Shown: piece by piece, positions 13,553 to 64,000 of the stretch
How the letters are laid out: every line of letters starts with the position of its first letter
Position numbering within the stretch: position 1 is the stretch's first letter
Assembly (NCBI GenBank): GCA_965541615.1
Contig: CBEUCJ010000004.1
Location: forward strand, 91,071-155,070
Direction: 5' to 3'
DNA: 64,000 bases
Origin: an uncultured bacterium
GTDB taxonomy: Bacteria; Omnitrophota; Gorgyraeia; Duberdicusellales; CBEUCJ01
Program-made: the position numbers and the translations under genes
The notes under the pieces: generated by a model
Database searches by the model: none
What the model saw: the letters and a program-made list of their open reading frames with translations, nothing else
Told to the model about the DNA's origin: nothing

Positions 13553-13553
13553 A

Positions 13554-14176: not shown

Positions 14177-14179
14177 ACT

Positions 14180-18510: not shown

Positions 18511-19014
18511 ATGCAAGAGTTAAAAAAGATTGAGCAAAAAATAGAAAAGATAGAATCTGAATCTCAAGAACCAGAAGCATTTATTGAAAAGATAGTTCAC
18601 ATCAACAGATGCACTAAGGTAACAAAGGGTGGCAAAAACCTTCATTTTTCAGCTTTAGTGATAGTAGGAAATGGTAAAGGAAAAGTAGGTTTTGGTTTAG
18701 GAAAAGCAAATGAAGTAGCTGATGCCATCAGAAAAGGAATAAAATTAGCAAAAAAGAATTTAATAGAAGTCCCTTTAAAAGAATCAAGGACTATTCCTCA
18801 TGAAGTTAAAGTAAAATTTAGAGCTACAGAGGTTTTGCTTAAACCTGCTTCTCGTGGAACAGGTGTTATAGCTTGTAGTGTTATTAGAGCTATATGTGAA
18901 TGTTGTGGAATAAAAGATATTCTTACAAAAATTTTAAGAAAATCTTCAAATCCTATAAATGTTACTTACTGTGTGTTTAAAGCTTTTAGTTATTTAAAAC
19001 CTGTAAAAACTTAA
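18511..19014 (+). CDS. rpsE: 30S ribosomal protein S5
   Basis: S5 dsRBD plus C-terminal domain (VVGNGKGKVGFGLGKA). Confidence 0.94.
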   Translation: MQELKKIEQKIEKIESESQEPEAFIEKIVHINRCTKVTKGGKNLHFSALVIVGNGKGKVGFGLGKANEVADAIRKGIKLAKKNLIEVPLKESRTIPHEVKVKFRATEVLLKPASRGTGVIACSVIRAICECCGIKDILTKILRKSSNPINVTYCVFKAFSYLKPVKT

Positions 19015-19016
19015 AA

Positions 19017-19460
19017 ATGTTAGGGATTCATAATTTAAAAAAACCTAAAGGAGCTAGTAAAAAGAAAAAAAGAGTAGGTTGCGGGCCAGGTTCAGGTCAT
19101 GGTAAGACTTCCACTAGAGGTCATAAAGGTCAAGGTCAACATGCAGGTTCAAAGACATACATTGGTTTTGAAGGAGGAAAAATCCCATTTTTCAGACATA
19201 TTCCCAAAAGAGGCTTTACACCCCCTTTTAGAAAAATATACCAAGTAGTCAATCTTAAAGATATCCAAGAAAGATTTGAAGAAGGAGAAGAAGTCACCCC
19301 TATTACTCTTAGATTGAAAGGATTGATAAGAGATGAGAAAAAGCCAGTTAAAATTTTAGGAGAAGGCAATTTAAAAAAACCCTTGGTCTTTAAGGTAGAT
19401 AAATTGAGTAAGAAAGCAAAAGAAGTAATAGAAAGAGTAGGAGGAAAAATTTTATGTTAA
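19017..19460 (+). CDS. rplO: 50S ribosomal protein L15. It follows rpsE directly; no L30 gene lies between them.
   Basis: Gly-rich N-terminus (GCGPGSGHGKTSTRGHKGQ); L15. Confidence 0.93.
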   Translation: MLGIHNLKKPKGASKKKKRVGCGPGSGHGKTSTRGHKGQGQHAGSKTYIGFEGGKIPFFRHIPKRGFTPPFRKIYQVVNLKDIQERFEEGEEVTPITLRLKGLIRDEKKPVKILGEGNLKKPLVFKVDKLSKKAKEVIERVGGKILC

Positions 19461-20803
19461 AGAGTTTAATAAATTGTTTTAAAATTCCAGATTTAAGAAA
19501 AAAGTTACTTATAACTTTAGGGTTATTAGCTGTATACAGATTAGGATGTTTTATTCCTATTCCTGGTATAAACATAGAAGCTTTAGATGAGTATTTTAGA
19601 AAGATAGCTGAATCTCAAGGAGTACCTACTCTATTTGGATTTATGAACCTTTTTACAGGTGGTGCTTTTAGAAGATTGACTATATTTGCTTTAGGGATTA
19701 TGCCTTACATTTCTGCTTCTATTATTATGCAACTTTTAACAGCTGTAGTTCCTTACTTAGAAAAATTATCCAAGGAAGGAAGAGCAGGCTACTTAAAAAT
19801 AAATCAATATGCAAGAGTTTTGACTTTATTTTTATGTATTATACAAGGTTTTTTCATAGCTTTGTGGTTAGAAAATCCAGGCCAAAGATTTTCTAACATT
19901 GTAGAAAATCCTGGTTGGGGGTTTAGATTAAATACAATAATAACTTTGGCATGTGGAAGTATTTTTATAATGTGGTTAGGTGAACAGTTGCAAGAAAGAG
20001 GAGTAGGTGGAATATCTTTAATAATAGCTGTGAGTATTATTTCCAGAGTACCTGCAGCTTTAAGCTATTTAGGAATGTTATTAAGGGGTAAAGCTCCATT
20101 TTCAGGAGAATGGGATATTCTTAAATTAATTGTACTTTCTGTTATATGGATAGGAGTAGTAATAGGAGTAGTTTTAATGACACAAGCCCAAAGAAGAGTT
20201 CAAATTCAATATGCAAGAAGGATAGTTGGAAGAAGAGTATATGGAGGAGGAGTTACCTATCTTCCTATAAGAGTAGATCAAGCAGGAATATTAGCAATAA
20301 TTTTTGCTCAAGCTGTGCTATCTTTTCCAGCTACCATTGCTACTTTTTTTCCTGGTTCTAAAATGCAAAGTCTTTTTAAAATATTTTTTGTAAGAAATAT
20401 TTGGTACAATTTAATTTATGCAGGGTTAATAATATTTTTTATGTATTTTTATACAGCTATAGTGTTTAATCCTACCGAAATCAGCAATAATTTAAAAAAA
20501 TCAGGTGGTTTTATTCCAGGTGTAAGACCTGGAAGACAAACAGCTGATTTTTTAGATTATGTAGTCACAAGAATTACCTTTGTTGGAGCTTTATACATTG
20601 CTTTTATCGCACTTTTTCCAGATATAGTGATGGGATGGTTTAAATTACCTTCTTACATGATAGCTTCTTTTTTTGGAGGCACGACCCTTTTAATAGTAGT
20701 AGGTGTAATGTTAGATACTATGCGTCAGATAGAGTCACAGTTATTATTAAGACATTATGAAGGTTTTACAAAATCTGGCAGATTAAGAGGAAGAAGATGG
20801 TAA
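19454..20803 (+). CDS. secY: Preprotein translocase subunit SecY
   Basis: Ten-TM profile and SecY motifs (GIMPYISASIIMQLL); end of the spc operon. Confidence 0.95.
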   Translation: MLKSLINCFKIPDLRKKLLITLGLLAVYRLGCFIPIPGINIEALDEYFRKIAESQGVPTLFGFMNLFTGGAFRRLTIFALGIMPYISASIIMQLLTAVVPYLEKLSKEGRAGYLKINQYARVLTLFLCIIQGFFIALWLENPGQRFSNIVENPGWGFRLNTIITLACGSIFIMWLGEQLQERGVGGISLIIAVSIISRVPAALSYLGMLLRGKAPFSGEWDILKLIVLSVIWIGVVIGVVLMTQAQRRVQIQYARRIVGRRVYGGGVTYLPIRVDQAGILAIIFAQAVLSFPATIATFFPGSKMQSLFKIFFVRNIWYNLIYAGLIIFFMYFYTAIVFNPTEISNNLKKSGGFIPGVRPGRQTADFLDYVVTRITFVGALYIAFIALFPDIVMGWFKLPSYMIASFFGGTTLLIVVGVMLDTMRQIESQLLLRHYEGFTKSGRLRGRRW

Positions 20804-25442: not shown

Positions 25443-26596
25443 TGAACCCTATTTTTAAGACCTTAAAGCCTTCTGAGACTCTAAAGATCTCTGCAAAAGC
25501 TAAAGAGTTAGCAAAGAAAGGATTAGATGTTATAAATCTTTCAGCTGGTGAACCTGACTTTGATACTCCTCAATATATAAAAGATGCTATAAAAAAAGCT
25601 TTAGATAATTCTAAAACTAAATACACCCCTGCCACTGGAATAAAAGAATTGAAAGAAGTAATTTCAGAAAAGTTTAAGAAAGAAAATTCATTAGAATACC
25701 CTCCAGATAATATTATAATAAGCTGTGGAGCAAAACATGTATTATTCAATATACTCTTTTGTCTTTTAGAAAAGAATGATAAAGTTTTAATAATTTCTCC
25801 TTACTGGGTGAGTTATCCAGCACAAATAATTCTTTGCAGAGGAACTCCTGTTATTTTAGAAACAGAATTTGAAGATAAGTTTGATATAGATTTAGAAGAG
25901 TTTAGAAGGAAAGTAAAAGGATGTAAAGCAGTTATAATCAATACACCTTCAAATCCTACAGGAAAGATTTTAAAAAGAGAAATTCTAGAGAAAATAGCAA
26001 AAGTTTGTTTAGAAGAAAAAGTTTACATTATAAGTGATGAGATCTATGAGAAAATAGTATTTGAATCTGAACATTTTAGTATAGGATCAGTTTCCAAAGA
26101 GATTTTGAAGATAACTTTTACTGTGAATGGGGTTTCAAAATCTTTTTCTATGACAGGTTTAAGGATTGGATGGTGTGGAGCTCCAATTTTAGTTAAAGAA
26201 CTATCTGTTCTTCAATCACACACTACTTCTAATCCTACAAGTATATCTCAGTATGGGGCTTTGGAAGCTTTGAGTAATCCTTTATGTAGAGATTTTTATG
26301 AATTTATAAGAAAAGAATTTAAAGAGAGAAGAGATGTGTTCTGCAGAGAGTTAGAAAAAATAGATAAGTTAGAAGTCTTTGTGCCAGAAGGTGCTTTTTA
26401 TGTATTTTGCAAAATTAAAAATACAGGTTTAAGTTCAAGTGAATTTTGTGAAAAACTGTTAGAAAAAGAATTAGTCTCTTGTGTACCAGGGGTAGTTTTT
26501 GGTAAAGAAGGATTTGTAAGATTTAGTTTATCTCAAAGTAGAGAAAGATTAAAAGAAGCAGCTGTTAGAATTAAAAATTTTATAGCTTCTTTATGA
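25442..26596 (+). CDS. Class I/II PLP-dependent aminotransferase (aspartate aminotransferase family)
   Basis: Fold-type I AT motifs. The PLP-lysine sits in NGVSKSFSMTGLRIGW. The ATG overlaps the rplQ stop. Confidence 0.85.
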   Translation: MNPIFKTLKPSETLKISAKAKELAKKGLDVINLSAGEPDFDTPQYIKDAIKKALDNSKTKYTPATGIKELKEVISEKFKKENSLEYPPDNIIISCGAKHVLFNILFCLLEKNDKVLIISPYWVSYPAQIILCRGTPVILETEFEDKFDIDLEEFRRKVKGCKAVIINTPSNPTGKILKREILEKIAKVCLEEKVYIISDEIYEKIVFESEHFSIGSVSKEILKITFTVNGVSKSFSMTGLRIGWCGAPILVKELSVLQSHTTSNPTSISQYGALEALSNPLCRDFYEFIRKEFKERRDVFCRELEKIDKLEVFVPEGAFYVFCKIKNTGLSSSEFCEKLLEKELVSCVPGVVFGKEGFVRFSLSQSRERLKEAAVRIKNFIASL

Positions 26597-27843
26597 CTAT
26601 AGCTGAAAAAATAATTTCTGCCCATTGTGGAAAAAAAGTAAGACCTGGAGATTTAGTTTTGTGTGAAGTAGATCTATGTTTTGGTCAGGATGGCACCTCA
26701 AACCTAATAATTGAAAGATTAGAAGAACTAAATGCAAATAAACTAAAAATAAGAAAAGCTTTTCTAGTTATAGACCATAACTCTCCTCCACCAAATGCAG
26801 ATGCTAGTAATATTCACAAAAGAATGCGTCAATTTGCAGAAAGATTTAGTTTGAGATTATTCGATGTAGGAGAGGGAGTCTGTCATCAAGTAGTATTAGA
26901 ATCAGGTGAAGTTCTGCCTTCAAGATTAATCTTAGGTGCAGATTCTCACACTACTACTCACGGAGCTTTAAATACTTTTAGTGCAGGAATAGGTTCTACA
27001 GATGCTGCTGTTTGTTTTTACACAGGAAAATTATGGCTGAAAACCCCTCCTACTATTAGGGTAGAGTTTGAAGGCAGTTTGAATAAAGGTGTTGAAGGAA
27101 AAGATATAGCTTTATATTTGTTAAAAATTCTGGGTTTAAATAGAGCAATTTATAAAGTTTTAGAATTTGGGGGAAAAAGCTTAAAAGAATTACCTCAGGA
27201 TTTTAGATTTACTATCTCTAATATGAGTGTAGAAGCAGGAGCAAAAGCTGCTATATTTGAGTATGATAGTATCACTGAAAGTTGGATAAAAACAGAATTA
27301 CTAGATTTTGATAAGTATGAACCTATTTTTCCAGATAAAAATGCAGAGTATTTAGAGAGAATAGTGATAAATCTTTCAGAAATAGAACCTATGGTAAGCA
27401 TTCCTCATTCACCTGCAAATGTTAAGAGAATTTCAGAGCTCAGAGATGTTAAAATAGATATGGGATTTATAGGGACTTGTACTAATGGAAGGTTAGAAGA
27501 TTTAAGAAGAGCTGCTAAGATTTTGAAAGGAAGGAAGATAAAAAAGAATGTAAGACTTATAGTTGCGCCTGCTTCAAAAAGAGTATTTGAAAAAGCTTTA
27601 AAAGAAGGGTTAATAGAAATATTCTTGCAAGCAGGAGCTGTAGTCTTTCCACCTGGATGTGGAGTATGTGTGGGAGCTCATGGAGGAGTTCCTGCAGATA
27701 GGGAAAATGTGATATCAACTTCTAATAGAAATTTTAAAGGAAGGATGGGGAATCCTAATAGTTTTATATATTTAGGTTCTCCTTCAACAGTTGCAGCTTC
27801 CTGTATAGAAGGTAAAATTACAGACCCTAGAAATTTTTTGTAA
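26593..27843 (+). CDS. Aconitase-family dehydratase large subunit. It is the archaeal-type short LeuC: 3-isopropylmalate dehydratase or homoaconitase large subunit.
   Basis: 416 aa. Fe-S ligand cysteines in GTCTNG and PPGCGVCVG contexts. Confidence 0.85.
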   Translation: MTIAEKIISAHCGKKVRPGDLVLCEVDLCFGQDGTSNLIIERLEELNANKLKIRKAFLVIDHNSPPPNADASNIHKRMRQFAERFSLRLFDVGEGVCHQVVLESGEVLPSRLILGADSHTTTHGALNTFSAGIGSTDAAVCFYTGKLWLKTPPTIRVEFEGSLNKGVEGKDIALYLLKILGLNRAIYKVLEFGGKSLKELPQDFRFTISNMSVEAGAKAAIFEYDSITESWIKTELLDFDKYEPIFPDKNAEYLERIVINLSEIEPMVSIPHSPANVKRISELRDVKIDMGFIGTCTNGRLEDLRRAAKILKGRKIKKNVRLIVAPASKRVFEKALKEGLIEIFLQAGAVVFPPGCGVCVGAHGGVPADRENVISTSNRNFKGRMGNPNSFIYLGSPSTVAASCIEGKITDPRNFL

Positions 27844-27865
27844 AAGAAAGGGAGGTGAGAATAAA

Positions 27866-28918
27866 ATGACACCTGATATTAGAGAGTTATTAAAATTAAC
27901 TATGGAGATGGGAGCTTCAGATCTACATTTGACAGAAAATACACCCCCTGTATTAAGGATAGATGGAAGACTTATGAGGACAGATTTCCCTCCTTTAACA
28001 AGAGAAGATACAAAAAGATTAGTTTACAGTATTTTAAATGATATTCAGAGAGAGACTTTTGAAAGAGACAAAGAATTAGATTTTTCACTTAACTTACCAG
28101 GATTAGATAGATTCAGAGTTAATGTCCATATTCAAAGAGGGAGTGTAGAAGCTGCTTTCAGAAGGATTCCTAGAGTTATTCCTTCTTTTGAGGAGTTAGG
28201 TTTACCTCCTATAGTTGAAGAGCTAGCTAGAAAACCTAATGGGTTGGTTTTAGTTACAGGTCCTACAGGAATGGGAAAGACCACAACTTTAGCTGCTATG
28301 ATAAATTTAATTAACAATGAGAGAGAATGTTTGATAATTACTATTGAGGATCCTATTGAATTCGTTCATACAAACAAAAAAGCTATTATAAAACAAAGAG
28401 AGGTGTATTCTGATACAAAATCTTTTGCTGAAGCTTTAAAAAGAGTCTTAAGACAAGATCCCGATGTTATAGTGGTAGGTGAAATGAGAGATTTAGAAAC
28501 GATATCTACTACTCTTACAGCAGCTGAAACTGGCCACTTAGTTTTAGCTACTCTTCATACTCCTGATGCTCCTCAGACAGTTCAAAGAATAATAGATGTA
28601 TTTCCTCCTCACCAACAACAACAAGTAAGATTACAGTTAGCTGATTGTATTCAAGGAGTAATCTCTCAATTACTTTTACCTAATGCTTCTGGAAGAGGAA
28701 GGGTTTTGGCTACAGAGATAATGATAGGCACACCTGCTATAAGAAATTTAATAAGAGAAGCTGAAATCGAACAAATCCCTACTCTTATTCAGACAGGCGC
28801 TCAATATGGAATGAGAACTATGGATAAATCTTTAAAAGAATTGTATAAAAAAGGATTAATTACTTATGAGGTAGCTATAAGTAAAGTAAAGAATATTCAG
28901 GAATTTAAAAATCTATGA
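27866..28918 (+). CDS. pilT: PilT-family (type IV pilus retraction-type) hexameric ATPase
   Basis: Walker [10 protein letters not shown], Asp box [10 protein letters not shown], Walker B VVGEMRD, His box ATLHT; 350 aa. Confidence 0.85.
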
Positions 28919-29418
28919 TATTTGAAGGAAGAGTATTTAAATTTGCAGATGATATAAACACAGATTACATAATTTCAGGTAAGAGAAAGTTTTCAATTTC
29001 AGACATTAAAGAATTGTGCAAATATTTATTTGAGGATATAAGACCTGGATTTTATGAAGCAGTAAAAAATACTCAAAGTATAATTGTAGCAGGTAAAAAC
29101 TTTGGATGTGGCTCATCTAGAGAACAAGCCCCTTTAGTTATAAAAGAAGTAGGGATAAAATGTATAATAGCAAAATCTTTTGCAAGAATATTTTATAGAA
29201 ATGCTTTTAATGTAGGTTTAGCTTTAATAGAGTGTGATACTGATTTGATAAGTGAAGGAGATTTCTTAAGAGTAGATTTAGAGAAAGGGCTCATTTTTAA
29301 TCAGACTCAAAATTCTCAAATAAAATTTAAGGAGTTGCCTAATTTTATGGAAAAGATTTTAAAAGAAGGTGGATTAATTAATCTCATTAAAAAATATGAA
29401 GGCTGGCCCCAAATATAG
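28915..29418 (+). CDS. Aconitase-family dehydratase small subunit (LeuD-type)
   Basis: 167 aa. The swivel-domain family motif FGCGSSRE (LeuD-type GSSRE). Confidence 0.85.
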
Positions 29419-31377: not shown

Positions 31378-31422
31378 CTTTTCATCAAAATTCACTAAAA
31401 ATCAAAGAGGAGGGAGGTGAGT

Positions 31423-31695
31423 ATGAAGAAGGTAGTTTTACCTGATTTAGGAGAAGGAATTGAAAAAGCTACTATAAGCTACTGGTATGCTAATGAAGGC
31501 GAACATGTAGAAGAAGGAGACAATTTAGTAGAAGTAGCTACAGAAAATTCAGTAATTAACATTCCTGCTCCGTGTTCAGGGATAGTAAGTGAGATATATT
31601 ATGGGGAAGGTGAGGTAGCCAGAGTAGGAGAGGTTATATGTGTAATAAGAGAAGAGACTGAAGACTTAGATTTAGGATTAGAATTTGAAGAATAA
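31423..31695 (+). CDS. Stand-alone lipoyl/biotinyl-attachment-like domain protein whose modifiable Lys is replaced by Asn
   Basis: Reads like an E2 lipoyl domain (VLPDLGEGIEKATISYWYANEGEHVEEGDNLVEV..IPAPCSGIV). The hairpin motif is ATENS instead of ETDKA. The ATG at 31423 follows a GGAGGGAGGTGA RBS; the track start 31417 is a GTG. Confidence 0.6.
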   Translation: MKKVVLPDLGEGIEKATISYWYANEGEHVEEGDNLVEVATENSVINIPAPCSGIVSEIYYGEGEVARVGEVICVIREETEDLDLGLEFEE

Positions 31696-31707: not shown

Positions 31708-32835
31708 ATGAGAATATTTGTTTTTTATATCACTCAATTTTCTGGACATTATAAGGTAGCTTGTTCTATAGCAGAATACCTGAAAAGTATAAAAGATGTT
31801 AAGGTAAGAGAATTAGATCTTTTTAAATATCTTTTTCCCTTCACAGAAAGGATTATAAATTTTTTGTATACTCTTACTATCAGAAAGTTCCCTTTCATTT
31901 GGCAGGGTGTTTATGATAAAGAATTTGTAGTAAAGAATTTAGGAAGGTTAGAGAAAGTAATATTTAAATTAGCTTTTAAGAAATTAAATAAATTATTCTC
32001 TGAATACAGACCTTGTTGTGTAATATGCACTCAAGCTTTTCCGTGTATTTTGACTTCATATTATAAAGAAAAAACTTCTTCAAATTTTTTAATATTTGCA
32101 ATTTTAACTGATTTTTTGCCCCACAGATTTTGGTTAAATAAAAATATTGATTTTTACGTAACTTCTACTCTTGAGGCAAAAAAAAGATTATTAAAAGAAG
32201 GTGTAAACCCCCAAAAAATTTTGGAATTTGGTATCCCAATAAGAAAAGAATTTTTTGAAGTTTTTGAAGAAGAAAAAATTTTAAAGGAGTTTAATTTACC
32301 TAAGAATAAACCTAAGATTCTTTTAATGGGAGGAGGTCAAGGAATAGGTCCAATTGCAAATTTAGTCAGAGAATTTTTAAGACAGAATATAAAAGCACAT
32401 TTAATAGTTGTGTGTGGAAGAAATAAAAAATTGTATTTAAAAGTAAAAAAAATCATTTCTAATTCTAATGAAAATTCAGTATCTGTATTTGGATATTTAG
32501 AAGAGATATATAAATTAATGGAAGTTTCAAAAATTTTGATCTCAAAACCAGGAGGAGCTACTCTCACTGAAGCCTTAGTAAAAGAGTTATCTATAATAAT
32601 CTTAAATCCTCTCCCAGGTCAAGAGAATAACAATCTTAAGATAATTTCAAAATATAACTTAGCATTTAAAGCTAAAGATACCCAAGATGCTTTTAGAATA
32701 GCTAAAGAAATTATAGAAAATAAAAAAGATCTAGAAGAATTGAAATTCAGAATAAGAGATTTTAAGAAAAATTGGTCTCCTCAAAAACTTGCAAATTTTA
32801 TAACAGAAAAATGCTCTACTATTTCTACCTTATAG
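31708..32835 (+). CDS. Diacylglycerol glycosyltransferase, UgtP/MGDG-synthase-like (GT28 family)
   Basis: Blocks matching B. subtilis UgtP: FSGHYKVA, ILTDFLPHRFW, GIPIRKEF, LIVVCGRN, ISKPGGATLTEA, PLPGQE. Confidence 0.75.
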   Translation: MRIFVFYITQFSGHYKVACSIAEYLKSIKDVKVRELDLFKYLFPFTERIINFLYTLTIRKFPFIWQGVYDKEFVVKNLGRLEKVIFKLAFKKLNKLFSEYRPCCVICTQAFPCILTSYYKEKTSSNFLIFAILTDFLPHRFWLNKNIDFYVTSTLEAKKRLLKEGVNPQKILEFGIPIRKEFFEVFEEEKILKEFNLPKNKPKILLMGGGQGIGPIANLVREFLRQNIKAHLIVVCGRNKKLYLKVKKIISNSNENSVSVFGYLEEIYKLMEVSKILISKPGGATLTEALVKELSIIILNPLPGQENNNLKIISKYNLAFKAKDTQDAFRIAKEIIENKKDLEELKFRIRDFKKNWSPQKLANFITEKCSTISTL

Positions 32836-33650
32836 GAAGATTCATTAGTTTATTACTTCCTCTAAAATTAGCTTACATCTTAGGTGTATATTTAGCAGAT
32901 TTAAAATATTGTTTTTCTATAAAAGATAGAAGGATATTAAGAGAAAATTTACAAGCAATTTTCCCTTATAGAGAGAAGAAGTTTTATAAAAGATGTGTAA
33001 GACAAATTTTTAGAAATTTTGCTAAATACCTTGTAGATTTTTTTAGAGCAAAAAAGATCGATTTAGATTTTATAAAGAAAAAAGTTAAAATAATAAATAA
33101 AGAAAATTTAGATAGAGCTCAAAGTTTAAACAAAGGAGTAATAATTTTAACTGCACACTTAGGAAATTGGGAGTTAGGAGGTCAAGTAGCTTCTCTTTTG
33201 GGGTACCCTATATGGGCAATAGCTCTCCCTCATAAAAATAAGAAGATAGATAGTTTTTTTAATTATCAAAGAAAAATTAAAGGAGTAAATGTGATCCCTA
33301 CAGGCAAAAGAGTAAAAAAAATACTTACTCTTTTGAAACAAAGGAAAATCGTTTGCTTTTTAGGTGATAGAGATTTTTCAGGAACAGGCTTATATACAGA
33401 ATTTTTTGGGAAAAAAGCTCAAATCCCTAAGGGAGCAGCTTTTTTTTCTTTAAGGACAGGAGCTCCAATTTTGCCAGTATTTTTTATAAGGAAAGAAAAC
33501 GATAAATTTGAATTAATATTTGAAAAACCAATATATCCTACAAAAAGAGAACAAGATTTAGTAAAAGATTATGTTAAAGTAATGCAGGAGTATATAAAAA
33601 AGTATCCTGAGCAATGGTTTATGTTTCAAAGATTTTGGAAAGAGGAATGA
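32811..33650 (+). CDS. Lipid A biosynthesis acyltransferase family (LpxL/HtrB/PatA-type) acyltransferase
   Basis: LTAHLGNWELGG (H..NWE) motif and a basic N-terminal hydrophobic helix. The start is ambiguous: ATG at 32811 or TTG at 32772, both overlapping the upstream gene. Confidence 0.7.
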   Translation: MLYYFYLIGRFISLLLPLKLAYILGVYLADLKYCFSIKDRRILRENLQAIFPYREKKFYKRCVRQIFRNFAKYLVDFFRAKKIDLDFIKKKVKIINKENLDRAQSLNKGVIILTAHLGNWELGGQVASLLGYPIWAIALPHKNKKIDSFFNYQRKIKGVNVIPTGKRVKKILTLLKQRKIVCFLGDRDFSGTGLYTEFFGKKAQIPKGAAFFSLRTGAPILPVFFIRKENDKFELIFEKPIYPTKREQDLVKDYVKVMQEYIKKYPEQWFMFQRFWKEE

Positions 33651-34339
33651 ACGTATTTGCATTGTTGCCTTCTTACAATGAAGAAAAAAATATAGGAAAA
33701 TTAGTTAGAGAATTAAGGAAAAAAGGTATAAATGTGTTAGTAATAGATGATGGTTCACAAGATAACACTTCTCAAATAGCAAAAAAGTGTGGAGCTTTAG
33801 TCTTAAGAAACGAAAAAAATTTAGGTAAAGGAGCAGCTTTAAAGAAAGGTTTTGAGTTTTTAAAAAAGAAAGATTTTGATGCTTTATTGATCTTAGATGC
33901 AGATGGTCAACATTCTCCAAAAGAAGTAGATAAATTTCTTACAGAGTTTGTAAAGAAAGGCTCTGATCTTATTATAGGAAATAGATTTTCTACTTCTCCA
34001 AAAGGTATGCCTTTGATAAGATACATTACTAATAAAGTTATGTCTTTTTTAATTTCATTTTTAGTTAAGAAGAAAATTAGAGACTCTCAATGTGGATTTA
34101 GATTAATGAGTAAGAGGTTTTTAGAAAAATTAGAATTGGAGACCGCTCATTTTGAAGTAGAATCAGAAATGATTTTTCAAGCTATATTAAAAGGATTCAA
34201 TATTTCAGAAGTCTGCATAGATAGTATCTATAGAAAAGAAAAATCAAAAATAAATCCTTTTTTAGATACTTTAAGATTTTTTAAATTCCTTTTTAAGTAT
34301 CTTCCAAAGATATGGAAAAAGAATTTAAAGAAGAGTTAG
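33647..34339 (+). CDS. Family 2 glycosyltransferase (polyprenyl-phosphate sugar transferase-like)
   Basis: GT2 motifs (LPSYNEEKNI, VIDDGSQDNT, DADGQH). The ATG at 33647 follows an AAGAGGA RBS and overlaps the upstream stop (ATGA). Confidence 0.75.
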   Translation: MNVFALLPSYNEEKNIGKLVRELRKKGINVLVIDDGSQDNTSQIAKKCGALVLRNEKNLGKGAALKKGFEFLKKKDFDALLILDADGQHSPKEVDKFLTEFVKKGSDLIIGNRFSTSPKGMPLIRYITNKVMSFLISFLVKKKIRDSQCGFRLMSKRFLEKLELETAHFEVESEMIFQAILKGFNISEVCIDSIYRKEKSKINPFLDTLRFFKFLFKYLPKIWKKNLKKS

Positions 34340-34962
34340 AGAAGATGATAGAGACTCAACTTGTAAAAAGAGGGATAACCAATGAAAGAGTATTAAATGC
34401 TATCAGAAAAACTCCTCGCCACCTCTTTGTCCCAGAAGATTCAAAACATTTAGCTTATGAAGACCATCCTTTATCCATTGGATATAATCAAACTATATCT
34501 CAACCCTATATAGTAGCATTAATGACTCAACTTTTAGACCCCAAAGATACTGACAAAGTTTTAGAGATAGGCACAGGTTCTGGTTGGCAGGCAGGTATTT
34601 TATCTTTTTTATGCAAAGAAGTTTATACTGTAGAAAGGATTCCAGAGTTAGCTGATTTTGCCAAGAATAATTTAGAAAAATTGAATATAAGAAACGTGCA
34701 TATATTTGTGAAAGACGGAACAAAAGGCTTAGAGGAGTTTTCCCCTTACGATAAGATAATAGTGACTTGTGCAGCTCCTCAAATTCCAAAAATACTTATT
34801 GAGCAATTAAAATTAAAAGGTAAAATGGTAATACCTGTGGGCAGTTTTTATTCTCAAGAGTTAATGTTAGTTAGAAAAATAGCTTCTGAAAAAGTAGAAA
34901 AAGAAGTAGTTTGTGGATGTGTATTTGTACCTATGATAGGTGAGTATGGTTTTAAAGAATGA
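34312..34962 (+). CDS. pcm: Protein-L-isoaspartate O-methyltransferase
   Basis: PCMT motifs (SQPYIVALM, LEIGTGSGWQA, TCAAPQIP). Confidence 0.88.
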   Translation: MEKEFKEELEKMIETQLVKRGITNERVLNAIRKTPRHLFVPEDSKHLAYEDHPLSIGYNQTISQPYIVALMTQLLDPKDTDKVLEIGTGSGWQAGILSFLCKEVYTVERIPELADFAKNNLEKLNIRNVHIFVKDGTKGLEEFSPYDKIIVTCAAPQIPKILIEQLKLKGKMVIPVGSFYSQELMLVRKIASEKVEKEVVCGCVFVPMIGEYGFKE

Positions 34963-35401
34963 GTTAATAGTCTTTTTATCTGCGAGTTTACCTGTCACTG
35001 AATTAAGAGGAGCTATTCCTTTGGGGTTATGTTTGGGATTGGGGCCTTTAAAGACTTTTTTTCTTTCAATATTAGGGAATACTTTGCCTGTCTTACCGCT
35101 ATTATATTTTTTTAAACCTTTGCATAGATTTTTTAAGAAAAATCCTTTAACCAGAAGAATATTCAATCTGATTTTAGAAAGGACTCATAAAAAAGCAAAG
35201 TTGATTGAAAAGTATGAACTATTAGGATTAATGTTACTGGTAGCAATACCCTTACCTGGGACAGGAGCTTGGACAGCAAGTATTGCAGCTTCTATATTTG
35301 GATTGAGAATAAAGTTAGCATTTATCTTTATACTTATAGGTATTTTTTTATCAGGAATAATCGTTTTATCTTTTAGTTTACCGATAACTATTATAAGATA
35401 A
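34946..35401 (+). CDS. Small integral membrane protein (putative small multidrug export, COG2426-like family)
   Basis: Four predicted TM helices and an ELRGAIPLG motif. ATG at 34946; the track start 34940 is a GTG. Confidence 0.5.
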   Translation: MVLKNELIVFLSASLPVTELRGAIPLGLCLGLGPLKTFFLSILGNTLPVLPLLYFFKPLHRFFKKNPLTRRIFNLILERTHKKAKLIEKYELLGLMLLVAIPLPGTGAWTASIAASIFGLRIKLAFIFILIGIFLSGIIVLSFSLPITIIR

Positions 35402-35403
35402 AA

Positions 35404-36579
35404 ATGGCAAAGTTTTTAGACTATAAGAAAGAATTAGAGACAGCTGCAAAGTCTACTATACTAATACATGATCCAAAAGTCCTTATAAAACTAATAATAA
35501 GGATGATAGTAAGAAAAATAGAAGTCCTACATGCAGGAATATTTTTGTATGATAGAAAAAAATCTCTCTATATACTTACTGCTTCTAAAGGTAAGAGTCA
35601 ATTAAAACTGCCTGCAGGTTTTTTATCTGTAAGAAAAACTTCACCTTTAATAAGATTTTTTGTAGAAGACAGATGGGATTTATGGGGTAAAAAAATATTA
35701 ATTTACAAGAATATAAAGAACGCTCTTAAAAGAACTCGTGTAAAAAAAGATCCAGAGATTTTTAATTTTTACAAAAGGTTAAAAGAGCTTTTAGAGATAT
35801 ACCAATCTACAGCTTGTATACCAAGTTTTTTTAGAAAAGAGTTGATAGCTCTTTTGATACTAGGAAAAAAATTAGATAACACTGAATTTACAGAAGAAGA
35901 ATTAGAGTTTTTGGAGGCTTTAGCTTCAGATGTAGCTATGAGTGTTAGAAATGCTCAGCTTTTTGAAGATTTATTATCTCAAGTAGAAAAACACAGAAAG
36001 TTATTTTACAGTGTAGTTCAAGCTTTAGTAGAAGCTATAGATGCCAAAGATAGATACACAAGAGGACATACTCAAAGAGTTACTCAAGTTTCTTTAAGGA
36101 TAGCAGAGGAATTATTAAAAGATAAAAGGAGAAAATTTTCTCCTAATTTTTTGGAGAATCTAAAGATAGCAGCTCTTTTGCATGATATAGGTAAAATCGG
36201 AATCTCAGAGAGTATACTCAATAAAAATGGAAAGTTAACATCTAAAGAGAGAGAAGAGATAGAAAAACATCCTAACATAGGAGCTTCAATATTAGAACCA
36301 ATAGAAGAGTTAAAAGAGGTAATAGAAGGAGTTAAATACCATCACGAAAGATACGATGGTAAAGGTTATCCTGAAAAGTTAAAAAGGAAAAAGATCCCTT
36401 TGATAGCAGCTATAATAAGCTGTGCAGATGCTTACGATGCTATGAGTACAGACAGACCTTACAGAAAAGCTCTAACTAAAGAAGAAATATGCAAAGAGTT
36501 TATCTTGCAAAAAGGAAAACAATTTCATCCTCAAATAGCAAATATAGTTGTGAGGTTAATTAAAAAGAATAAGATTTAA
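35404..36579 (+). CDS. HD-GYP domain c-di-GMP phosphodiesterase with an N-terminal GAF-like sensory domain
   Basis: HD..LHDIGK..HHERYDGKGYP contains the GYP motif. Confidence 0.85.
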   Translation: MAKFLDYKKELETAAKSTILIHDPKVLIKLIIRMIVRKIEVLHAGIFLYDRKKSLYILTASKGKSQLKLPAGFLSVRKTSPLIRFFVEDRWDLWGKKILIYKNIKNALKRTRVKKDPEIFNFYKRLKELLEIYQSTACIPSFFRKELIALLILGKKLDNTEFTEEELEFLEALASDVAMSVRNAQLFEDLLSQVEKHRKLFYSVVQALVEAIDAKDRYTRGHTQRVTQVSLRIAEELLKDKRRKFSPNFLENLKIAALLHDIGKIGISESILNKNGKLTSKEREEIEKHPNIGASILEPIEELKEVIEGVKYHHERYDGKGYPEKLKRKKIPLIAAIISCADAYDAMSTDRPYRKALTKEEICKEFILQKGKQFHPQIANIVVRLIKKNKI

Positions 36580-39831: not shown

Positions 39832-40694
39832 AAATATGGATTAATGGCAGTTTATATGAGAAAGATGAAGCTAAAATCAGTGTTTTAGATCATGGATTTT
39901 TATATGGAGATGGTGTTTTTGAAGGAATAAGAGCTTATAACAGAGTAATCTTTAAGTTAGATGAACATTTAGATAGGTTATATAAGAACGCACATGTTAT
40001 CCTTTTGAAAGTTCCTTTAAAAAAAGAAGAGTTAAAAAAGGCAATTATAACTACCCTAAAAGCAAATAGATTAAAAGATGCTTACATAAGAGTAGTAGTT
40101 ACTAGAGGAGAAGGTGATTTAGGTTTAGATCCAAGAAAATGCAAAGATCCAAATGTAGTTATAATCACAGATAAAATAGTTTTGTATCCAGAGAAAATAT
40201 ATAAAGAAGGTTTAGAGATAATTACTGTGCCTACAAGAAGAAACTTATGTGAAGCTTTAAATCCAAATATTAAGTCTTTAAACTATTTGAATAATATATT
40301 AGCAAAAATTGAAGCTATAAATTGTGGGTACCAAGAGGCAATTATGCTTAACCAGCAAGGATTTGTGGCTGAATGCACAGGTGATAATATTTTTATAGTA
40401 AAAGATAATACTTTGGTTACTCCCCCTTCTTATTTAGGAGTTCTAAAAGGGATAACTGCTCAGACTGTAAAGGAATTAGCTAAAAAAATAAAAGTAAGTT
40501 ATTCAGAAGAAGTTTTTACAAGGTATGAACTCTATACAGCTCAGGAAGTATTTTTAACAGGGACAGCAGCTGAGATCGTCCCTGTAGTAAAAATAGATGG
40601 AAGAATAATAGGAGATGGCAAACCTGGTAAAGTTACTTTAAAGTTAATTAAAGAATTTCGTAAAATAGTAGAAAAAGAAGGGGTCAGATACTAA
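39828..40694 (+). CDS. ilvE: Branched-chain amino acid aminotransferase (fold-type IV PLP enzyme)
   Basis: Class IV AT pattern (GFLYGDGVFEGIRAY, EAIMLN..G.V.E). Confidence 0.85.
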   Translation: MKIWINGSLYEKDEAKISVLDHGFLYGDGVFEGIRAYNRVIFKLDEHLDRLYKNAHVILLKVPLKKEELKKAIITTLKANRLKDAYIRVVVTRGEGDLGLDPRKCKDPNVVIITDKIVLYPEKIYKEGLEIITVPTRRNLCEALNPNIKSLNYLNNILAKIEAINCGYQEAIMLNQQGFVAECTGDNIFIVKDNTLVTPPSYLGVLKGITAQTVKELAKKIKVSYSEEVFTRYELYTAQEVFLTGTAAEIVPVVKIDGRIIGDGKPGKVTLKLIKEFRKIVEKEGVRY

Positions 40695-41188
40695 TGCTTT
40701 GTGATATATGTGGTAAAAAAATAGCTACTGTTCATCTTACAGAGATTATAAATGGAGAAGTAAGAGAGCTCCATTTATGTGAAGATTGTGCTTTAAAAAA
40801 ATCCCAAGAAGTTCAACAACAGTTTTCTTTAGGAGATATATTAGCAGGTTTAGTAGAAGAGATAACTACACCTGAAGCAAGAGAGATTTTAAAATGCAAA
40901 AAATGTCAAATGACTTATCAGGAATTTAAAAAGATTGGGAGGTTAGGTTGTAGTAACTGTTATTTAGCTTTTAAAAAACAACTTTCACAACTTCTAAGAG
41001 CAATACATGGTTCAAATGCTCATCAGGGCAAAGTTCCTCCTACAAAGTTTAAGTTAAAAATAGATATAGAAATAGAAGAGTTAAAAAAAAGATTGAAAAG
41101 AGCAATAGAATTAGAAGAATTTGAAGAGGCAGCTAAAATAAGAGATAAGATAAAGGAGTTGGAAAAAAAGAAAAATGAATCTCAATGA
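40694..41188 (+). CDS. mcsA: McsA-like protein arginine kinase activator (two CxxC zinc fingers plus a UVR motif)
   Basis: CDICG...CEDC and CKKCQ...CSNC, then a C-terminal UvrB/C-like EEFEEAAKIRDKIKELE. Directly upstream of mcsB. Confidence 0.8.
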   Translation: MLCDICGKKIATVHLTEIINGEVRELHLCEDCALKKSQEVQQQFSLGDILAGLVEEITTPEAREILKCKKCQMTYQEFKKIGRLGCSNCYLAFKKQLSQLLRAIHGSNAHQGKVPPTKFKLKIDIEIEELKKRLKRAIELEEFEEAAKIRDKIKELEKKKNESQ

Positions 41189-42218
41189 TTTTTTAAAAAA
41201 GCCTCCTTGTTGGCTTAAAGAGAGTTCAGAATCTCAAAATATAGTAATATCTTCTAGAATAAGGATCGCCAGAAATTTAACAGATATTCCTTTCCCTCAC
41301 CGCGCTTCTTTAGCTCAAAAAGAAGAGATAATAAGAAGATTTTTAGAAGCAAAAGACAATGTAGAAAGATTTAAAGAAAGCGTATTTTTTAGAATCGATG
41401 AACTTTCTCATGTCGATAAACAGTTTTTGATCGAAAGGCATTTAATAAGTCCAGATTTAGCTCAGAATTCAAAAGGAGCAGCTTTACTAGTGACTTGTGA
41501 TGAATTAATTTCAGTAATGGTAAATGAAGAGGATCATTTTAGAATACAGATACTAAGTGCAGGAGCTCAATTAAAGAATTTATGGTATCAGTTAAACAGT
41601 ATAGATGATAAATTATCTGAAAAGTTAAATTTTGCTTTTTCTAAAGAATGGGGATATCTTACAGCTTGCCCTACAAATGTAGGAACAGGTTTAAGAGGCT
41701 CAGTTATGCTACATTTACCAGGATTGGTGTTATTAAAAAGGATAAATAAGGTTCTGCATGCTATCTCTAAATTGAGTTTTAATACAAGAGGTTTATTCGG
41801 TGAAGGCACTCAAGCTATAGGAAATCTATTTCAGATTTCTAACCAAATAAGCTTAGGACAGAGTGAGTCTGATATCTTAGATAATATTGAAGGAGTAATA
41901 AAACAAGTTACTGAGCAAGAGTTATCTGCAAGAGAACACTTATTAAAGACTCAAAGGATGTTTATAGAGGATAAAGTATGGAGAGCGTATGGAATTCTTA
42001 AAAATTCTAGAATAATAAATTCTCAAGAGGCTTTAGAATTGTTTTCTATGTTGAGATTAGGGTTAGATTTAGGTATAATAGAAAAAGTTAGTTACGCAGA
42101 TTTAAATGAATTGTTTTTAATTATACAGCCTGCTCACTTGCAAAAGAAAGAAGGAAGGATTTTGAGTGCTCAAGAGAGAGATATAAAAAGAGCAGAGTTA
42201 ATAAGGAGAAAGCTTTAG
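41175..42218 (+). CDS. mcsB: Protein arginine kinase McsB (ATP:guanido phosphotransferase family)
   Basis: Phosphagen-kinase catalytic motif [10 protein letters not shown](G/A)S. Confidence 0.88.
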
Positions 42219-42220
42219 AA

Positions 42221-44668
42221 ATGTTTAACAGATTTACTGAAAGAGCAAGGAAAGTAATTTTATTAGCTAAAGAAGAAGCCAAACGCTTCAACCATGATTA
42301 CATAGGTACTGAACACATTCTGTTAGGTCTAATTAAGGAATCTGAAGGAGTAGCTGTTGCAGTTTTAGAAAATTTAGGAGTTAATTTGAATGGATTAAAA
42401 AGAGAGATAGAAAAATACATACATCCTAATCCAAGTTCTGTACATATAGTAGGAGACATTCCTTTTACTCCCAGAGCAAAGAAAGCTTTAGAATTAGCAG
42501 CAGAAGAGGCACGCAACTTAGGGCATAGTTATATAGGTACTGAACATTTACTTTTAGGTTTATTAAAAGAAGGAGAAGGAATAGCTGCGCAGGTTTTAAA
42601 TGATTTGGGTGTAGATTTTCAGAAAGTAAGAACTGAAGTTATGAATCTCTTGGGATTTTCAACTGCGTCTAGTAGTTTTCCAGGTAGTCACAAAACGCAT
42701 GTTAAAACACCTGCTTTAGATGCATTTGGAAGAGATTTAACACAGTTAGCTAAAGAAGGCAAATTAGATCCAGTCATTGGCAGAGAGAATGAGATTCAGA
42801 GAGTAATGCAGGTCTTATGCAGAAGGACAAAGAATAATCCTGTTCTCTTAGGAGAAGCAGGTGTAGGAAAAACTGCTATTGTAGAAGGGTTAGCTCAAAG
42901 AATAATAAAAGGAGAAGTCCCTGAGTTATTAAAAAACAAAAGAATAGTCGCTTTAGATTTAGCTTTAATGGTTGCAGGTACAAAATACAGAGGACAATTT
43001 GAAGAAAGAATAAAAGCAGTTATGGAAGAGATAAAGCAAGCCAAAGATGTAATATTATTTATAGATGAGTTACATACCTTAGTTGGAGCAGGAGCTGCAG
43101 AAGGAGCAATAGATGCTTCAAATATTTTAAAACCTGCTCTATCTAGAGGTGAGATTCAATGTATAGGAGCTACTACTTTTGATGAGTACAGAAAACATAT
43201 TGAGAAAGATGCAGCTTTAGAAAGGAGGTTTCAGCCTATTTTTGTAGACCCTCCGACTGTAGAACAGACTATAGAGATATTAAAAGGGCTAAGAGACAGA
43301 TATGAAGCTCATCACAGAGTAAGGTTTTTAGATCAAGCTTTAGAATCTGCAGCCAAATTATCAGATAGATATATTTCAGGCAGATACCTTCCTGATAAAG
43401 CTATAGATTTAATAGATGAAGCAGGTGCACGTGCAAGACTAAGGGTTTTGACTCCTCCTCCAGAGATAAAGGAATTAGAAAATAAACTAGAACATATAAG
43501 AAAAGAAAAAGAAGCCTACATAAAACAACAAAATTTTGAAGCAGCTGCTAACTTAAGAGACGAAGAAAGAGCTATACGCATGAAGTTAGAAGCTTTAAGA
43601 AAAGAATGGTCTCAAAAGAGAGAATCACTGATACCCACAGTTACTGCTGAAGACATAGCAAAGATAGTTTCTCAATGGACAGGAATTCCTTTATACAGAT
43701 TAGAAGAGACTGAGTCTGAAAAATTACTAAGGTTAGAAGAGGAAATATCCAAAAGAGTAGTAGGACAATCAGAAGCTATAAAAGCTGTAGCCAGAGCTAT
43801 AAGAAGATCAAGAGCAGGAATTAAAGATCCTAAAAGACCTATAGGTTCTTTTATATTTTTGGGCCCAACAGGTGTAGGTAAAACTTTATTAGCAAGAGCT
43901 TTAGCTGAGTATATGTTTGGAAATGAGGAAGCATTAATCCAAATAGATATGTCTGAATACATGGAGAAATTTAATGTTTCAAGATTAATTGGAGCTCCTC
44001 CTGGATATGTAGGATATGAAGAAGGAGGCCAGTTAACAGAAGCTGTAAGAAGAAAACCTTATAGTGTAGTACTTTTAGATGAGATAGAGAAAGCTCACCC
44101 TGATGTTTTCAATCTTCTTTTGCAAATATTAGAAGATGGTAGGCTTACAGATAGTTTTGGAAGAAAGGTAGATTTTAGAAATACAATTTTAATCATGACT
44201 TCAAATGTAGGAGCTGAGATTATAAGAAAAAAAGGTTCCTTAGGTTTTAAAGTATTAAAAGAAGAGATTTCTTATGAAGAGATGAAAGAAAGGTTGTTAG
44301 AAGAAGTTAAGAAAACATTTAAGCCTGAATTTTTAAACCGAATAGATGAGATAATTGTTTTTAGACCTTTAAATAAAGAAGATTTGGAGAAAATTGTAGA
44401 TATTGAGATGAGCTTTGTGAAAGAGAGATTAAAGGAAAAAGGAGTAGATATCGAGTTAACAAAATCAGCTAAAGAGTTTTTAATCGAAAAAGGCTTTGAT
44501 CCTGCTTTTGGAGCCAGACCCTTAAAAAGAGTAATTCAAAGGTATATAGAAGATTCATTAGCAGAAGAGTTAATAGCTCAGAAGTTTTCACACAAAACCC
44601 CAGATCCTCAAACCAAACTCATCAAGATAAAAATAGATTTTAAAGATAATAAGATTATATTTGAATGA
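42221..44668 (+). CDS. clpC: ATP-dependent Clp protease ATP-binding subunit ClpC
   Basis: Two Clp-N repeats, two AAA+ modules ([16 protein letters not shown]), an internal UVR motif and a ClpP-docking loop region. Confidence 0.93.
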
Positions 44669-50649: not shown

Positions 50650-50657
50650 AGATTTAG

Positions 50658-50686: not shown

Positions 50687-50713
50687 ATTTGACTTTCAGT
50701 TTATAAAATACCT

Positions 50714-63159: not shown

Positions 63160-64000
63160 CTAATTGAGACTTAAAAAATTTAATATCCCCCACAAACAAG
63201 CCAAAAAAGGAAGGAGCCAACAACTTAAGAAAGGATTTAGAAAACCTGTTTTTCCCAAAGCCACACTTATGCTTAAAGCTACATAGAATACAAATGAACA
63301 CAACACACTCATTCCTAAATTTGAAAGAAGATAAGTAGTTTTTTTAATTCTCAAGAAAATCCCTAAAAAAGTAAGGTTTAAAAATATAGGTAAAAAACAT
63401 ATTACATATTTCTTATTTAACTCTGCAATTAAGTTTTTGGCTATCTCATAAGCATTTATTTTTTTAAAATACTTTATTTTTTCTTTTAATATTTTAGTAG
63501 GTAAAATTTCAAAAGGTCCACTCCTTAACATTAACTTTTGAGGAGGAGGAAGATGTAATTTTAGTTCATTGTAAAAGAAGATAGGTTTTTCAGAGGAGAA
63601 AAGATCAGAAACACTTACTTTCTTTAATATCCATTTTTTATCTTTATAGATTCCTTCTTGAGCATATATTTTTTTAAAATTATTCTGATCAAAGACTAAG
63701 ATACCTTTTGCTAAGTTTTTTTTAAGATGAAATTCACTGATTATGATTGCCTGTCCTTTTTCACTGAAATTCATGATGTCTTTAAGAACTTGTTTTTTCT
63801 GGATCTTTTGCGAGAAGATTGTAGACTTTAATTCTTTGTATTTTTTTGAGATTTCTGGTAGCCAATATTCACAAAAGTAAAGAGAAAATAAAGAGAGCAA
63901 AAAAAGAAAGATTATAATAGGAATAATTATTTTAAAATTACTAATCCCAAAGCTCCTCAAAGCTAATATTTCATTATTTTTATTTAATTCAGTTAAACAA
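63160..64000 (-). CDS. LptF/LptG-family (YjgP/YjgQ) permease, C-terminal part. The gene continues beyond the window edge.
   Basis: Multi-TM protein with a periplasmic beta-jellyroll-like middle region. The reading frame is open through nt 64000 on the - strand; the track's M at 63960 is an internal TTG. Convergent with alr. Confidence 0.7.
   Translation of the reverse strand, partial: CLTELNKNNEILALRSFGISNFKIIIPIIIFLFLLSLFSLYFCEYWLPEISKKYKELKSTIFSQKIQKKQVLKDIMNFSEKGQAIIISEFHLKKNLAKGILVFDQNNFKKIYAQEGIYKDKKWILKKVSVSDLFSSEKPIFFYNELKLHLPPPQKLMLRSGPFEILPTKILKEKIKYFKKINAYEIAKNLIAELNKKYVICFLPIFLNLTFLGIFLRIKKTTYLLSNLGMSVLCSFVFYVALSISVALGKTGFLNPFLSCWLLPFLACLWGILNFLSLN

Follow-up and report, generated by a model that had tools for sequence, protein, structure and literature searches.

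The 64,000-nucleotide (nt) stretch analysed here, called the window throughout, belongs to an uncultured bacterium of the phylum Omnitrophota (contig CBEUCJ010000004.1, forward-strand positions 91,071 to 155,070). Three consecutive genes in it encode a glycosyltransferase of family GT28, an acyltransferase of the family that holds both PatA and LpxL, and a glycosyltransferase of family GT2. As far as gene order can show, this trio is a conserved unit far beyond this genome. It is read here, tentatively and with a probability of about 0.4, as the core of an as yet uncharacterised envelope-lipid module that is conserved in the Omnitrophota and related phyla of the Planctomycetes-Verrucomicrobia-Chlamydiae (PVC) group and would make an acylated glycosyl-diacylglycerol (glycosyl-DAG). 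The strongest competing explanation, a serious one that also falls short of an even chance, is that the acyltransferase is a PVC-type late (secondary) acyltransferase of lipid A, functionally LpxL, within a mixed envelope operon.

Results

Three overlapping genes and their families

A scan of the window for open reading frames (ORFs) places the three genes next to each other on the + strand. ORF 1 (31708..32835, 375 amino acids (aa)) encodes the GT28 enzyme, which is of the UgtP/MGD (MGDG_synth) type. ORF 2, the LABLAT/LPLAT acyltransferase of the PatA/LpxL family, ends at 33650 and can begin at TTG 32772 (292 aa, overlapping the GT28 gene by 64 nt) or at ATG 32811 (279 aa, 25 nt), as in the range of 25-64 nt given by an earlier note on this DNA (the original prediction). 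The ATG is most likely the true start, judging from the orthologue alignment and a public gene call (P0001) that is the identical 279-aa protein. ORF 3, a soluble GT2 of the DPM1/PpgS/AglJ type, ends at 34339 and most likely starts at ATG 33647 (230 aa), its first codon overlapping the stop codon of the acyltransferase gene as ATGA; the alternative start is ATG 33614 (241 aa). In the profile check, the families proposed for the three products (MGDG_synth/GT28, Lip_A_acyltrans and GT2) all scored above their Pfam gathering cutoffs.

Translational coupling of the trio, also claimed in the original prediction, did not survive comparison with the rest of the window, where 40 of the 67 gene junctions overlap and 56 are at most 15 nt apart. 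Because overlapping genes are the rule genome-wide, the overlaps are not specific evidence of coupling, and their use as a sign of a special link within the trio was ruled out.

A UgtP-like GT28 and a soluble GT2

The GT28 enzyme matches the Pfam model MGDG_synth (PF06925) over model positions 1-169 of 169 (4.4e-26, 92.4 bits, cutoff 25), followed by Glyco_tran_28_C (PF04101; 2.4e-08, 34.6 bits, cutoff 22). The NCBIfam model for diglucosyl-DAG synthase, PRK13609, aligns over the full length with 213 bits, below its equivalog cutoff of 500, and PRK13608 reaches 143 bits (cutoff 557). By these scores the protein is a member of the UgtP/MGD family and not an equivalog. Among solved structures, phmmer retrieves the processive diacylglycerol beta-glucosyltransferase UgtP (3e-40) and plant MGD1 (3.8e-22), and the alignment to solved UgtP spans the SGH, KPGG.T..E and PGQE blocks. 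SGH (residues 12-14), LTD..PH..W, KPGGATLTE (280-288, KPGG.T..E) and PLPGQE (301-306, P.PGQE) are kept in at least 90% of 70 orthologues. The resemblance to Bacillus subtilis UgtP proposed beforehand is thus borne out from end to end. No transmembrane segment is predicted; the enzyme is probably soluble or peripheral, and its product would be a beta-hexosyl-DAG.

MurG was considered as an alternative identity and rejected. The MurG model TIGR01133 gives only 55.5 bits (cutoff 250) and covers residues 168-365, in the C-terminal half. The grouping with MurG that had been named as a refutation did not occur, with 55 bits for MurG against 213 for PRK13609.

The GT2 enzyme carries Glycos_transf_2 (PF00535; 1.9e-28, 99.9 bits). 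All NCBIfam models score below their cutoffs: AglJ with 133 bits (cutoff 325), PpgS with 114 (370) and the dolichyl-phosphate (Dol-P) hexose transferase model with 81.5 (375). Its seven best relatives of solved structure comprise Dol-P-Man synthase (1.2e-17), ArnC and the GtrB-like sll0501. The motifs DDGS.D.T, D.DGQH (95-100) and D.QCGFR are kept across 66 orthologues, and no transmembrane segment is predicted. These features agree with the earlier description of a soluble GT2 of the polyprenyl-phosphate sugar transferase type and point to a candidate polyprenyl-phosphate hexose synthase resembling DPM1 and PpgS; a role as a soluble GT2 of the lipopolysaccharide (LPS) core is also possible.

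An acyltransferase between PatA and LpxL

The acyltransferase matches Lip_A_acyltrans (PF03279) over its full length (1.8e-49, 169 bits, cutoff 22.3) and has one N-terminal hydrophobic helix. H116-x4-E121 and D186 are invariant in its alignments, and D186 aligns with the catalytic E200 of PatA. The LPLAT/LABLAT family spans the secondary acyltransferases of lipid A, the sugar acyltransferase PatA of phosphatidylinositol mannosides (PIM) and VexE, with a common His/acidic dyad (PMC9597891). Public annotations name the protein in two ways: IMG labels it 'KDO2-lipid IV(A) lauroyltransferase', which supports the LpxL explanation, and the NCBI pipeline PGAP labels the family 'lysophospholipid acyltransferase family protein'.

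The two highest NCBIfam scores of the window protein are those of PatA (PRK07920, 148.6 bits, cutoff 209) and the epsilon-type LpxL (PRK08419, 142.3 bits, cutoff 248), a near tie that counts in favour of LpxL. Two further models for the LpxL/LpxM/LpxP enzymes lie much further from their cutoffs (TIGR02207, 98 bits against 297.8; TIGR02208, 66.7 against 336), the Chlamydia LpxL model gives 47 bits, and PRK08905 and PRK05645 match weakly. PRK07920 is the best NCBIfam match in all three lineages tested, never reaching 209; it exceeds the best LpxL model by 107.9 to 94 bits in an Aureabacteria member (L083) and by 164 to 93 in a Kiritimatiellia member (L101). A profile of the family scores PatA at 96.8 bits, Acinetobacter baumannii LpxM at 80.7, E. 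coli LpxL at 50.6 and E. coli LpxM at 24.9. The AlphaFold2 model (mean predicted local distance difference test score, pLDDT, 90) superposes on PatA with a TM-score of 0.76 and a root-mean-square deviation (rmsd) of 2.5 Å, and on LpxM with 0.78 and 4.5 Å, at the same E-values. As a discriminator between PatA and LpxM, the fold comparison (0.76 versus 0.78) is uninformative.

In every sequence comparison the acyltransferase leans towards PatA and away from LpxL/LpxM, with none of them decisive. Its placement in the lipid A biosynthesis/PatA family holds by the 169-bit PF03279 match and this lean, with a fold that suits LpxM equally. A grouping with bona fide LpxL had been named as a test: the enzyme stands apart from E. 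coli LpxL and LpxM, and reaches no PatA cutoff either. The genes that surround PatA in the PIM pathway, the phosphatidylinositol (PI) synthase PgsA1 and the GT4 enzyme PimA, are absent from the window and about 100 related loci, in which the partner is GT28.

Conservation of the gene order

GTDB species genomes were scanned with the acyltransferase alignment, giving 532 confirmed relatives, of which the best 80 loci were analysed. These loci belong to Omnitrophota or close kin, one per genome, and adjacency was counted only where enough flanking sequence is present to judge it. Of 75 judgeable loci, 67 have the GT28 gene immediately upstream of the acyltransferase; the GT2 gene comes immediately after it in 69 of 72, and both partners flank it in 61 of 68 judgeable Omnitrophota loci, at 30-53% identity to the window proteins (38-53% for the acyltransferase). 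An unbiased clustering of ORFs returns the same core, with the acyltransferase in 80, GT28 in 73 and GT2 in 69 loci; less constant are a protein-L-isoaspartate O-methyltransferase (PCMT, 41), Sm_multidrug_ex (36), HD_5 (35) and CobA/BtuR-like proteins (34).

The GT28-acyltransferase-GT2 order recurs in Aureabacteria, Kiritimatiellia and Lentisphaerae, usually with a gene for Sm_multidrug_ex or DedA, both small membrane proteins, after GT2. In one Kiritimatiellia (L101) and one Lentisphaerae locus (L102), the series runs from LipA through GT28, the acyltransferase and GT2 to a small membrane protein and an ORF of about 150 aa. A stepping-stone search from the high-GC member L082 extended the acyltransferase subfamily to metagenome-assembled genomes (MAGs) labelled Kiritimatiellia, Lentisphaerota, Verrucomicrobiia and Planctomycetota. 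The proposal that the three genes form a cluster is confirmed by this retention of both partners within the Omnitrophota and in other PVC phyla.

In one subclade the place immediately before the acyltransferase is taken by an inserted class I/II aminotransferase gene (L060 8782-9969, L071 8691-9875, L078 382-1569 and L085 8487-9671), with GT28 several kb upstream or undetected.

Fusion and tandem proteins

An exhaustive profile search (E <= 1e-30) collected 3,769 clusters at 50% identity. Among them is a 687-aa metagenomic protein (P0405), present on two contigs, in which MGDG_synth, GT28_C and Lip_A_acyltrans are joined in one chain. In its relatives the GT28 and acyltransferase genes lie in frame, with one stop codon and 3-6 nt between them (L104 8001-9965, L105 7522-9525 and L106 8001-9965). 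Five further proteins of 468-622 aa (P0361, P0366, P0407, P0422 and P0478) contain two Lip_A_acyltrans domains in tandem, and both halves match the subfamily profile, which suggests two successive acylations in some lineages. Their resemblance to an LpxL/LpxM pair is a point for the LpxL explanation.

Lipopolysaccharide context

The genes of the window and its surroundings clearly mark the organism as an LPS-bearing diderm. At its end, an LptG-type LPS export permease is encoded on the - strand (63160..64000, PF03739, 7.8e-32), incomplete at the window boundary, and LolCDE and MlaEFD are also encoded in the window. Public contigs match the window at 99.2-99.6% identity. One of them (L098), 99.2% identical to window 50934-64000, holds a full-length copy of the permease (173 bits for the Pfam model, 122.6 for LptG), next to it an LptF-type gene (184 bits), and then a protein of the PagL lipid A 3-O-deacylase family (65.4 bits, cutoff 23); these genes occupy 12227-14340 and 18929-19501 of that contig.

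The original prediction had noted the absence of lpx, kds and waa genes from the vicinity. This is literally so in the window, which nonetheless holds the LptF/G permease, LolCDE and MlaEFD. The conclusion drawn from a missing LPS context, a function other than the late acylation of lipid A, fails in an organism with LptF, LptG and PagL. A tblastn search with the E. coli Lpx, Kds and Waa proteins over the window plus roughly 1.5 Mb from related loci found only LpxA and FabZ, a weak negative; the LpxA matches came from the Aureabacteria loci and from separately fetched lpxA contigs. In the Aureabacteria (L083 and L086), the one lineage with this linkage, a bona fide lpxA lies directly upstream of GT28; its product shares 38-40% identity with E. 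coli LpxA and has the LpxA-specific C-domain. LpxA is also present on contigs of MAGs labelled Omnitrophota, where lpxA is either solitary or on too short a sequence to inform on lpxB. Across the approximately 1.5 Mb of sampled neighbourhoods, which are local loci only, waaA, lpxK, lpxB and msbA never adjoin the acyltransferase. A literature search for the LPS and lipid A of Omnitrophota yielded nothing usable. In the cultured Kiritimatiella glycovorans, LPS genes coexist with two glycolipids and with phosphoglycolipids (PMC5148204).

A proposed pathway and the explanations that compete with it

The module would act at the cytoplasmic face of the inner membrane, and all substrates and products of the three enzymes given here are putative. 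In the first step, to judge from its family and catalytic motifs, GT28 would move a hexose from a UDP-sugar onto diacylglycerol to yield beta-hexosyl-DAG. In the second, the acyltransferase, through its His116/Asp186 dyad, would acylate a sugar hydroxyl, as PatA does on PIM, giving a tri-acylated glycolipid; this acylation of the GT28 product, proposed by analogy, is the weakest step. In the third, GT2 may load polyprenyl phosphate with hexose, the Sm_multidrug_ex protein encoded downstream (DedA elsewhere) may handle the carrier lipid across the membrane, and the sugar may serve for extension or decoration of the glycolipid, or of another envelope glycan, in the periplasm. The pathway would run alongside LPS, not in its place.

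This acylated glycosyl-DAG pathway is placed slightly ahead of a PVC-type LpxL because of the cross-phylum linkage to a DAG-glycosyltransferase, the fusion protein, the lean to PatA and the missing linkage to waaA, lpxK and msbA. The pathway outlined in the original prediction is therefore kept in part: the families, the PatA lean and the conserved unit stand, and its exclusion of lipid A is not established.

A series of observations weighs against the glycosyl-DAG pathway. A LABLAT enzyme of an LPS-bearing phylum is, a priori, more likely to serve lipid A, and LptF, LptG and PagL are present in this organism. The predicted fold fits PatA and LpxM equally, and neither the PatA nor the UgtP curated cutoff is reached. 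The subfamily occurs only in PVC phyla that bear LPS, once per sampled locus, the pattern expected of a vertically inherited LpxL. The tightest pair is acyltransferase-GT2 and not GT28-acyltransferase; GT28 is displaced or absent in six loci (L060, L071, L078, L082, L085 and L103), and in Aureabacteria lpxA precedes it. Old synteny alone can persist, as shown by the lipoate genes, which keep their place near the trio across phyla although unrelated to it in function. The fusion is known from a single lineage and could have been created by an error or a trivial mutation, since the genes of its relatives lie in frame with one stop between them. Finally, the conserved neighbourhoods hold no GT-C enzyme (ArnT/PMT/YfhO-like) that would use a polyprenyl-phosphate sugar; the recurrent neighbours are instead genes for cobalamin salvage, lipoate, TonB and shikimate.

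On the LpxL explanation, the likeness to PatA arises only because the curated LpxL models were mostly built on Proteobacteria, and GT28 and GT2 have separate jobs in an anciently syntenic 'envelope lipid' operon, GT28 as a membrane glycosyl-DAG synthase and GT2 perhaps in LPS decoration, like ArnC plus ArnE/F. The presence of LptF, LptG, PagL, LolCDE and MlaEFD, the single copy per locus across LPS-bearing PVC phyla, the lpxA gene beside the trio in Aureabacteria and the long-range synteny of the lipoate genes are all in keeping with it. So are the second rank of A. baumannii LpxM, close behind PatA by profile and fold, and the likeness of the acyltransferase-GT2-small membrane protein set to a lipid A modification set. 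It is opposed by the distance of the enzyme from all curated LpxL/LpxM cutoffs and by the low rank of the E. coli enzymes (50.6 and 24.9 bits against 96.8 for PatA). The Kiritimatiellia margin (164 to 93 bits), the poor Chlamydia score, the empty search for adjoining waaA, lpxK, lpxB or msbA, the GT28-acyltransferase fusion and the persistence of the GT28 adjacency across phyla argue against it as well. By itself, the sequence does not decide between a glycosyl-DAG and lipid A as the substrate of the acyltransferase.

It is improbable that the trio forms a non-canonical branch of the lipid A/LPS inner core, in which GT28 carries out a step like that of LpxB or WaaA, the late acyl chains come from the acyltransferase and GT2 provides a polyprenyl-phosphate sugar for lipid A decoration. 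Equally improbable is a variant in which GT28 replaces LpxB/WaaA or builds a diacylglycerol-anchored, LPS-like glycolipid that is acylated and then exported by LptFG. GT28 and LpxB are both inverting GT-B enzymes with lipid acceptors, and the lpxA-GT28-acyltransferase order of Aureabacteria mirrors the canonical lpxA-lpxB order. The fusion, and the absence of GT19 LpxB and GT30 WaaA homologues from every sampled locus, point the same way, but this absence says little for local neighbourhoods, and the lpxA linkage occurs in one lineage only. An LPS pathway that dispenses with LpxB or WaaA has, to our knowledge, no precedent. GT28 also fits the DAG-glycosyltransferase N-domain model end to end with its UgtP/MGD motifs kept, and related PVC bacteria are reported with ordinary LPS gene sets (PMC5148204).

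Least probable of all is a general enzyme of lysophospholipid or glycerolipid remodelling, for example one that re-acylates lyso-lipids for the diacylglycerol pool of GT28: the PGAP name, the weak PRK08905 and PRK05645 matches and a catalytic motif common to the LPLAT superfamily (PMC9597891) favour it, but that name is a fallback label with no tested function, and PatA, LpxL and LpxM, which acylate sugar lipids, match far better than enzymes of the PlsC type.

Comparison with characterised systems

The PIM-lipomannan pathway of mycobacteria and corynebacteria (PimA, PatA and Ppm1/PpgS) likewise combines a cytoplasmic GT-B enzyme acting on a glycerolipid, a sugar-acylating LABLAT enzyme and a soluble DPM1-like synthase. 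Among characterised relatives of the second and third module proteins, PatA and PpgS score best, and in both systems the glycosyltransferase and acyltransferase genes adjoin. The module differs in having a UgtP-like GT28 in place of the GT4 enzyme PimA, in lacking a PI synthase/inositol context and a nearby elongating GT-C enzyme, and in residing in LPS-bearing diderms; the PatA and PpgS cutoffs lie above its scores.

UgtP (YpfP) of the Firmicute anchor system is the closest characterised relative of the module GT28, and the CsbB/GtcA-type C55-P-sugar system parallels its GT2 and small multi-pass membrane protein. The module, however, lacks a lipoteichoic acid (LTA) synthase, its GT2 has no transmembrane helices, the UgtP systems have no LABLAT partner, and GT28 remains at 213 bits against a cutoff of 500.

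With LpxL and LpxM the acyltransferase shares the Pfam family, the fold, the catalytic His/acidic dyad, a host with LPS export and PagL, and the IMG label. It lies below their curated cutoffs, is most distant from the E. coli LpxL and LpxM, never stands beside waaA, lpxK or msbA in the sampled loci, and is linked to a DAG-type glycosyltransferase.

VexE is also an LPLAT/LABLAT-type enzyme of an LPS-bearing Gram-negative; with a His/Asp dyad it acylates the sugar of a non-lipid-A glycolipid, a capsule precursor (PMC9597891). A non-lipid-A role in a Gram-negative therefore has a precedent. VexE differs in its TPR domain, its action on UDP-GlcNAc and its capsule locus, and has no specific sequence relationship to the subfamily. 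In ArnC and ArnE/ArnF, finally, a GT2 polyprenyl-phosphate sugar synthase is again paired with a small multi-pass membrane protein, and ArnC is among the solved relatives of the module GT2. This GT2 lacks the ArnC transmembrane helices, and the module has no ArnT-like GT-C and no sugar-modifying enzymes; the likeness of ArnE/F to Sm_multidrug_ex is one of arrangement.

Neighbouring genes and a candidate fourth member

Downstream of the trio, a small polytopic membrane protein (34946..35401, + strand) matches Sm_multidrug_ex (PF06695, 1.2e-39). It is a candidate fourth member of the module and may act as a flippase or carrier-lipid handler. In 32 of the 60 Omnitrophota loci that can be judged, its gene is no more than 2.6 kb downstream of the acyltransferase gene. 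The slot after GT2 is occupied by Sm_multidrug_ex in the Kiritimatiellia locus L101 (10631-11347) and by a DedA/VTT protein in the Lentisphaerae locus L102 (10628-11296) and a PVC contig (L103, 10617-11237). Homology between Sm_multidrug_ex and DedA was considered and found no support (hhalign probability 0.3%). The ORF of about 150-160 aa after this slot has weak ferritin-like matches in L101 and L102 and no Pfam match in L103.

Between GT2 and the membrane protein gene, the window has the PCMT gene (34312..34962, +; PCMT 4e-62; PRK00312, 262.8 bits, cutoff 188). PCMT is found downstream in 34 of 60 loci and is probably an unrelated passenger. A GAF and HD_5 (HD-GYP-type) protein follows at 35404..36579 (+; HD_5, 1.5e-33). 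The HD_5 gene is downstream of the trio in the window and directly upstream of GT28 in 29 of 69 judgeable loci; the protein is a recurrent neighbour and possibly a regulator, of uncertain membership in the module.

Genes of lipoate metabolism (LipB, LipA, a lipoyl protein and Lpd) remain in synteny with the module across Omnitrophota, Kiritimatiellia and Lentisphaerae (L083 1996-3795, L082 9099-9959, L101 7014-7895 and L102 6956-7864). In the window, a free-standing 92-aa lipoyl-domain protein (31417-31695) precedes the trio. In other Omnitrophota, cobalamin genes (CobA/BtuR-like, BtuF-like, FecCD, CobU, CobT, CobS and a TonB-dependent receptor) often lie 3' of the module (L004 9529-12966 and L006 10715-16888; also L018, L030 and others); the window lacks them.

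Other features of the window

Named homologues of its genes assign the window to Omnitrophota. It has a GC content of about 30% and runs from an rpoBC/ribosomal-protein region through housekeeping genes. All 68 large ORFs up to 63157 lie on the + strand, the sole large exception in the window being the permease gene at 63160-64000, and the GC skew is positive in every 2-kb bin of 1-63157 (0.16-0.41). These features indicate an extremely compact and co-oriented segment.

An operon at 40694-44668 encodes McsA-McsB (protein arginine kinase) with a ClpC/ClpB-like AAA+ protein, a stress system best known from Firmicutes. At 26593-29418, a PilT-type ATPase gene lies between the genes for the large (aconitase/LeuC-like) and small (LeuD-like) dehydratase subunits, and the order PilT-LeuD-Icd-Mdh recurs in many Omnitrophota loci (L004, L011, L014 and others). 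A GTP-dependent phosphoenolpyruvate (PEP) carboxykinase gene sits between ispD and ispF (49951-53060).

Discussion

The family memberships, the motifs, the conservation of the module and the LPS context are established. The individual families are well known; their combination, GT28, acyltransferase, GT2 and a small membrane protein, is undescribed. Should the acyltransferase be the LpxL of PVC bacteria, this would matter for metabolic reconstructions, as IMG counts it as a K02517-type LpxL and NCBI does not, and the persistent link to a DAG-glycosyltransferase would stay unexplained. If the acyltransferase instead acylates the product of GT28, a bacterial enzyme for making acyl-glycosyl-diacylglycerols would have been identified, and LPS-bearing PVC bacteria would carry a second, PIM-like envelope glycolipid pathway.

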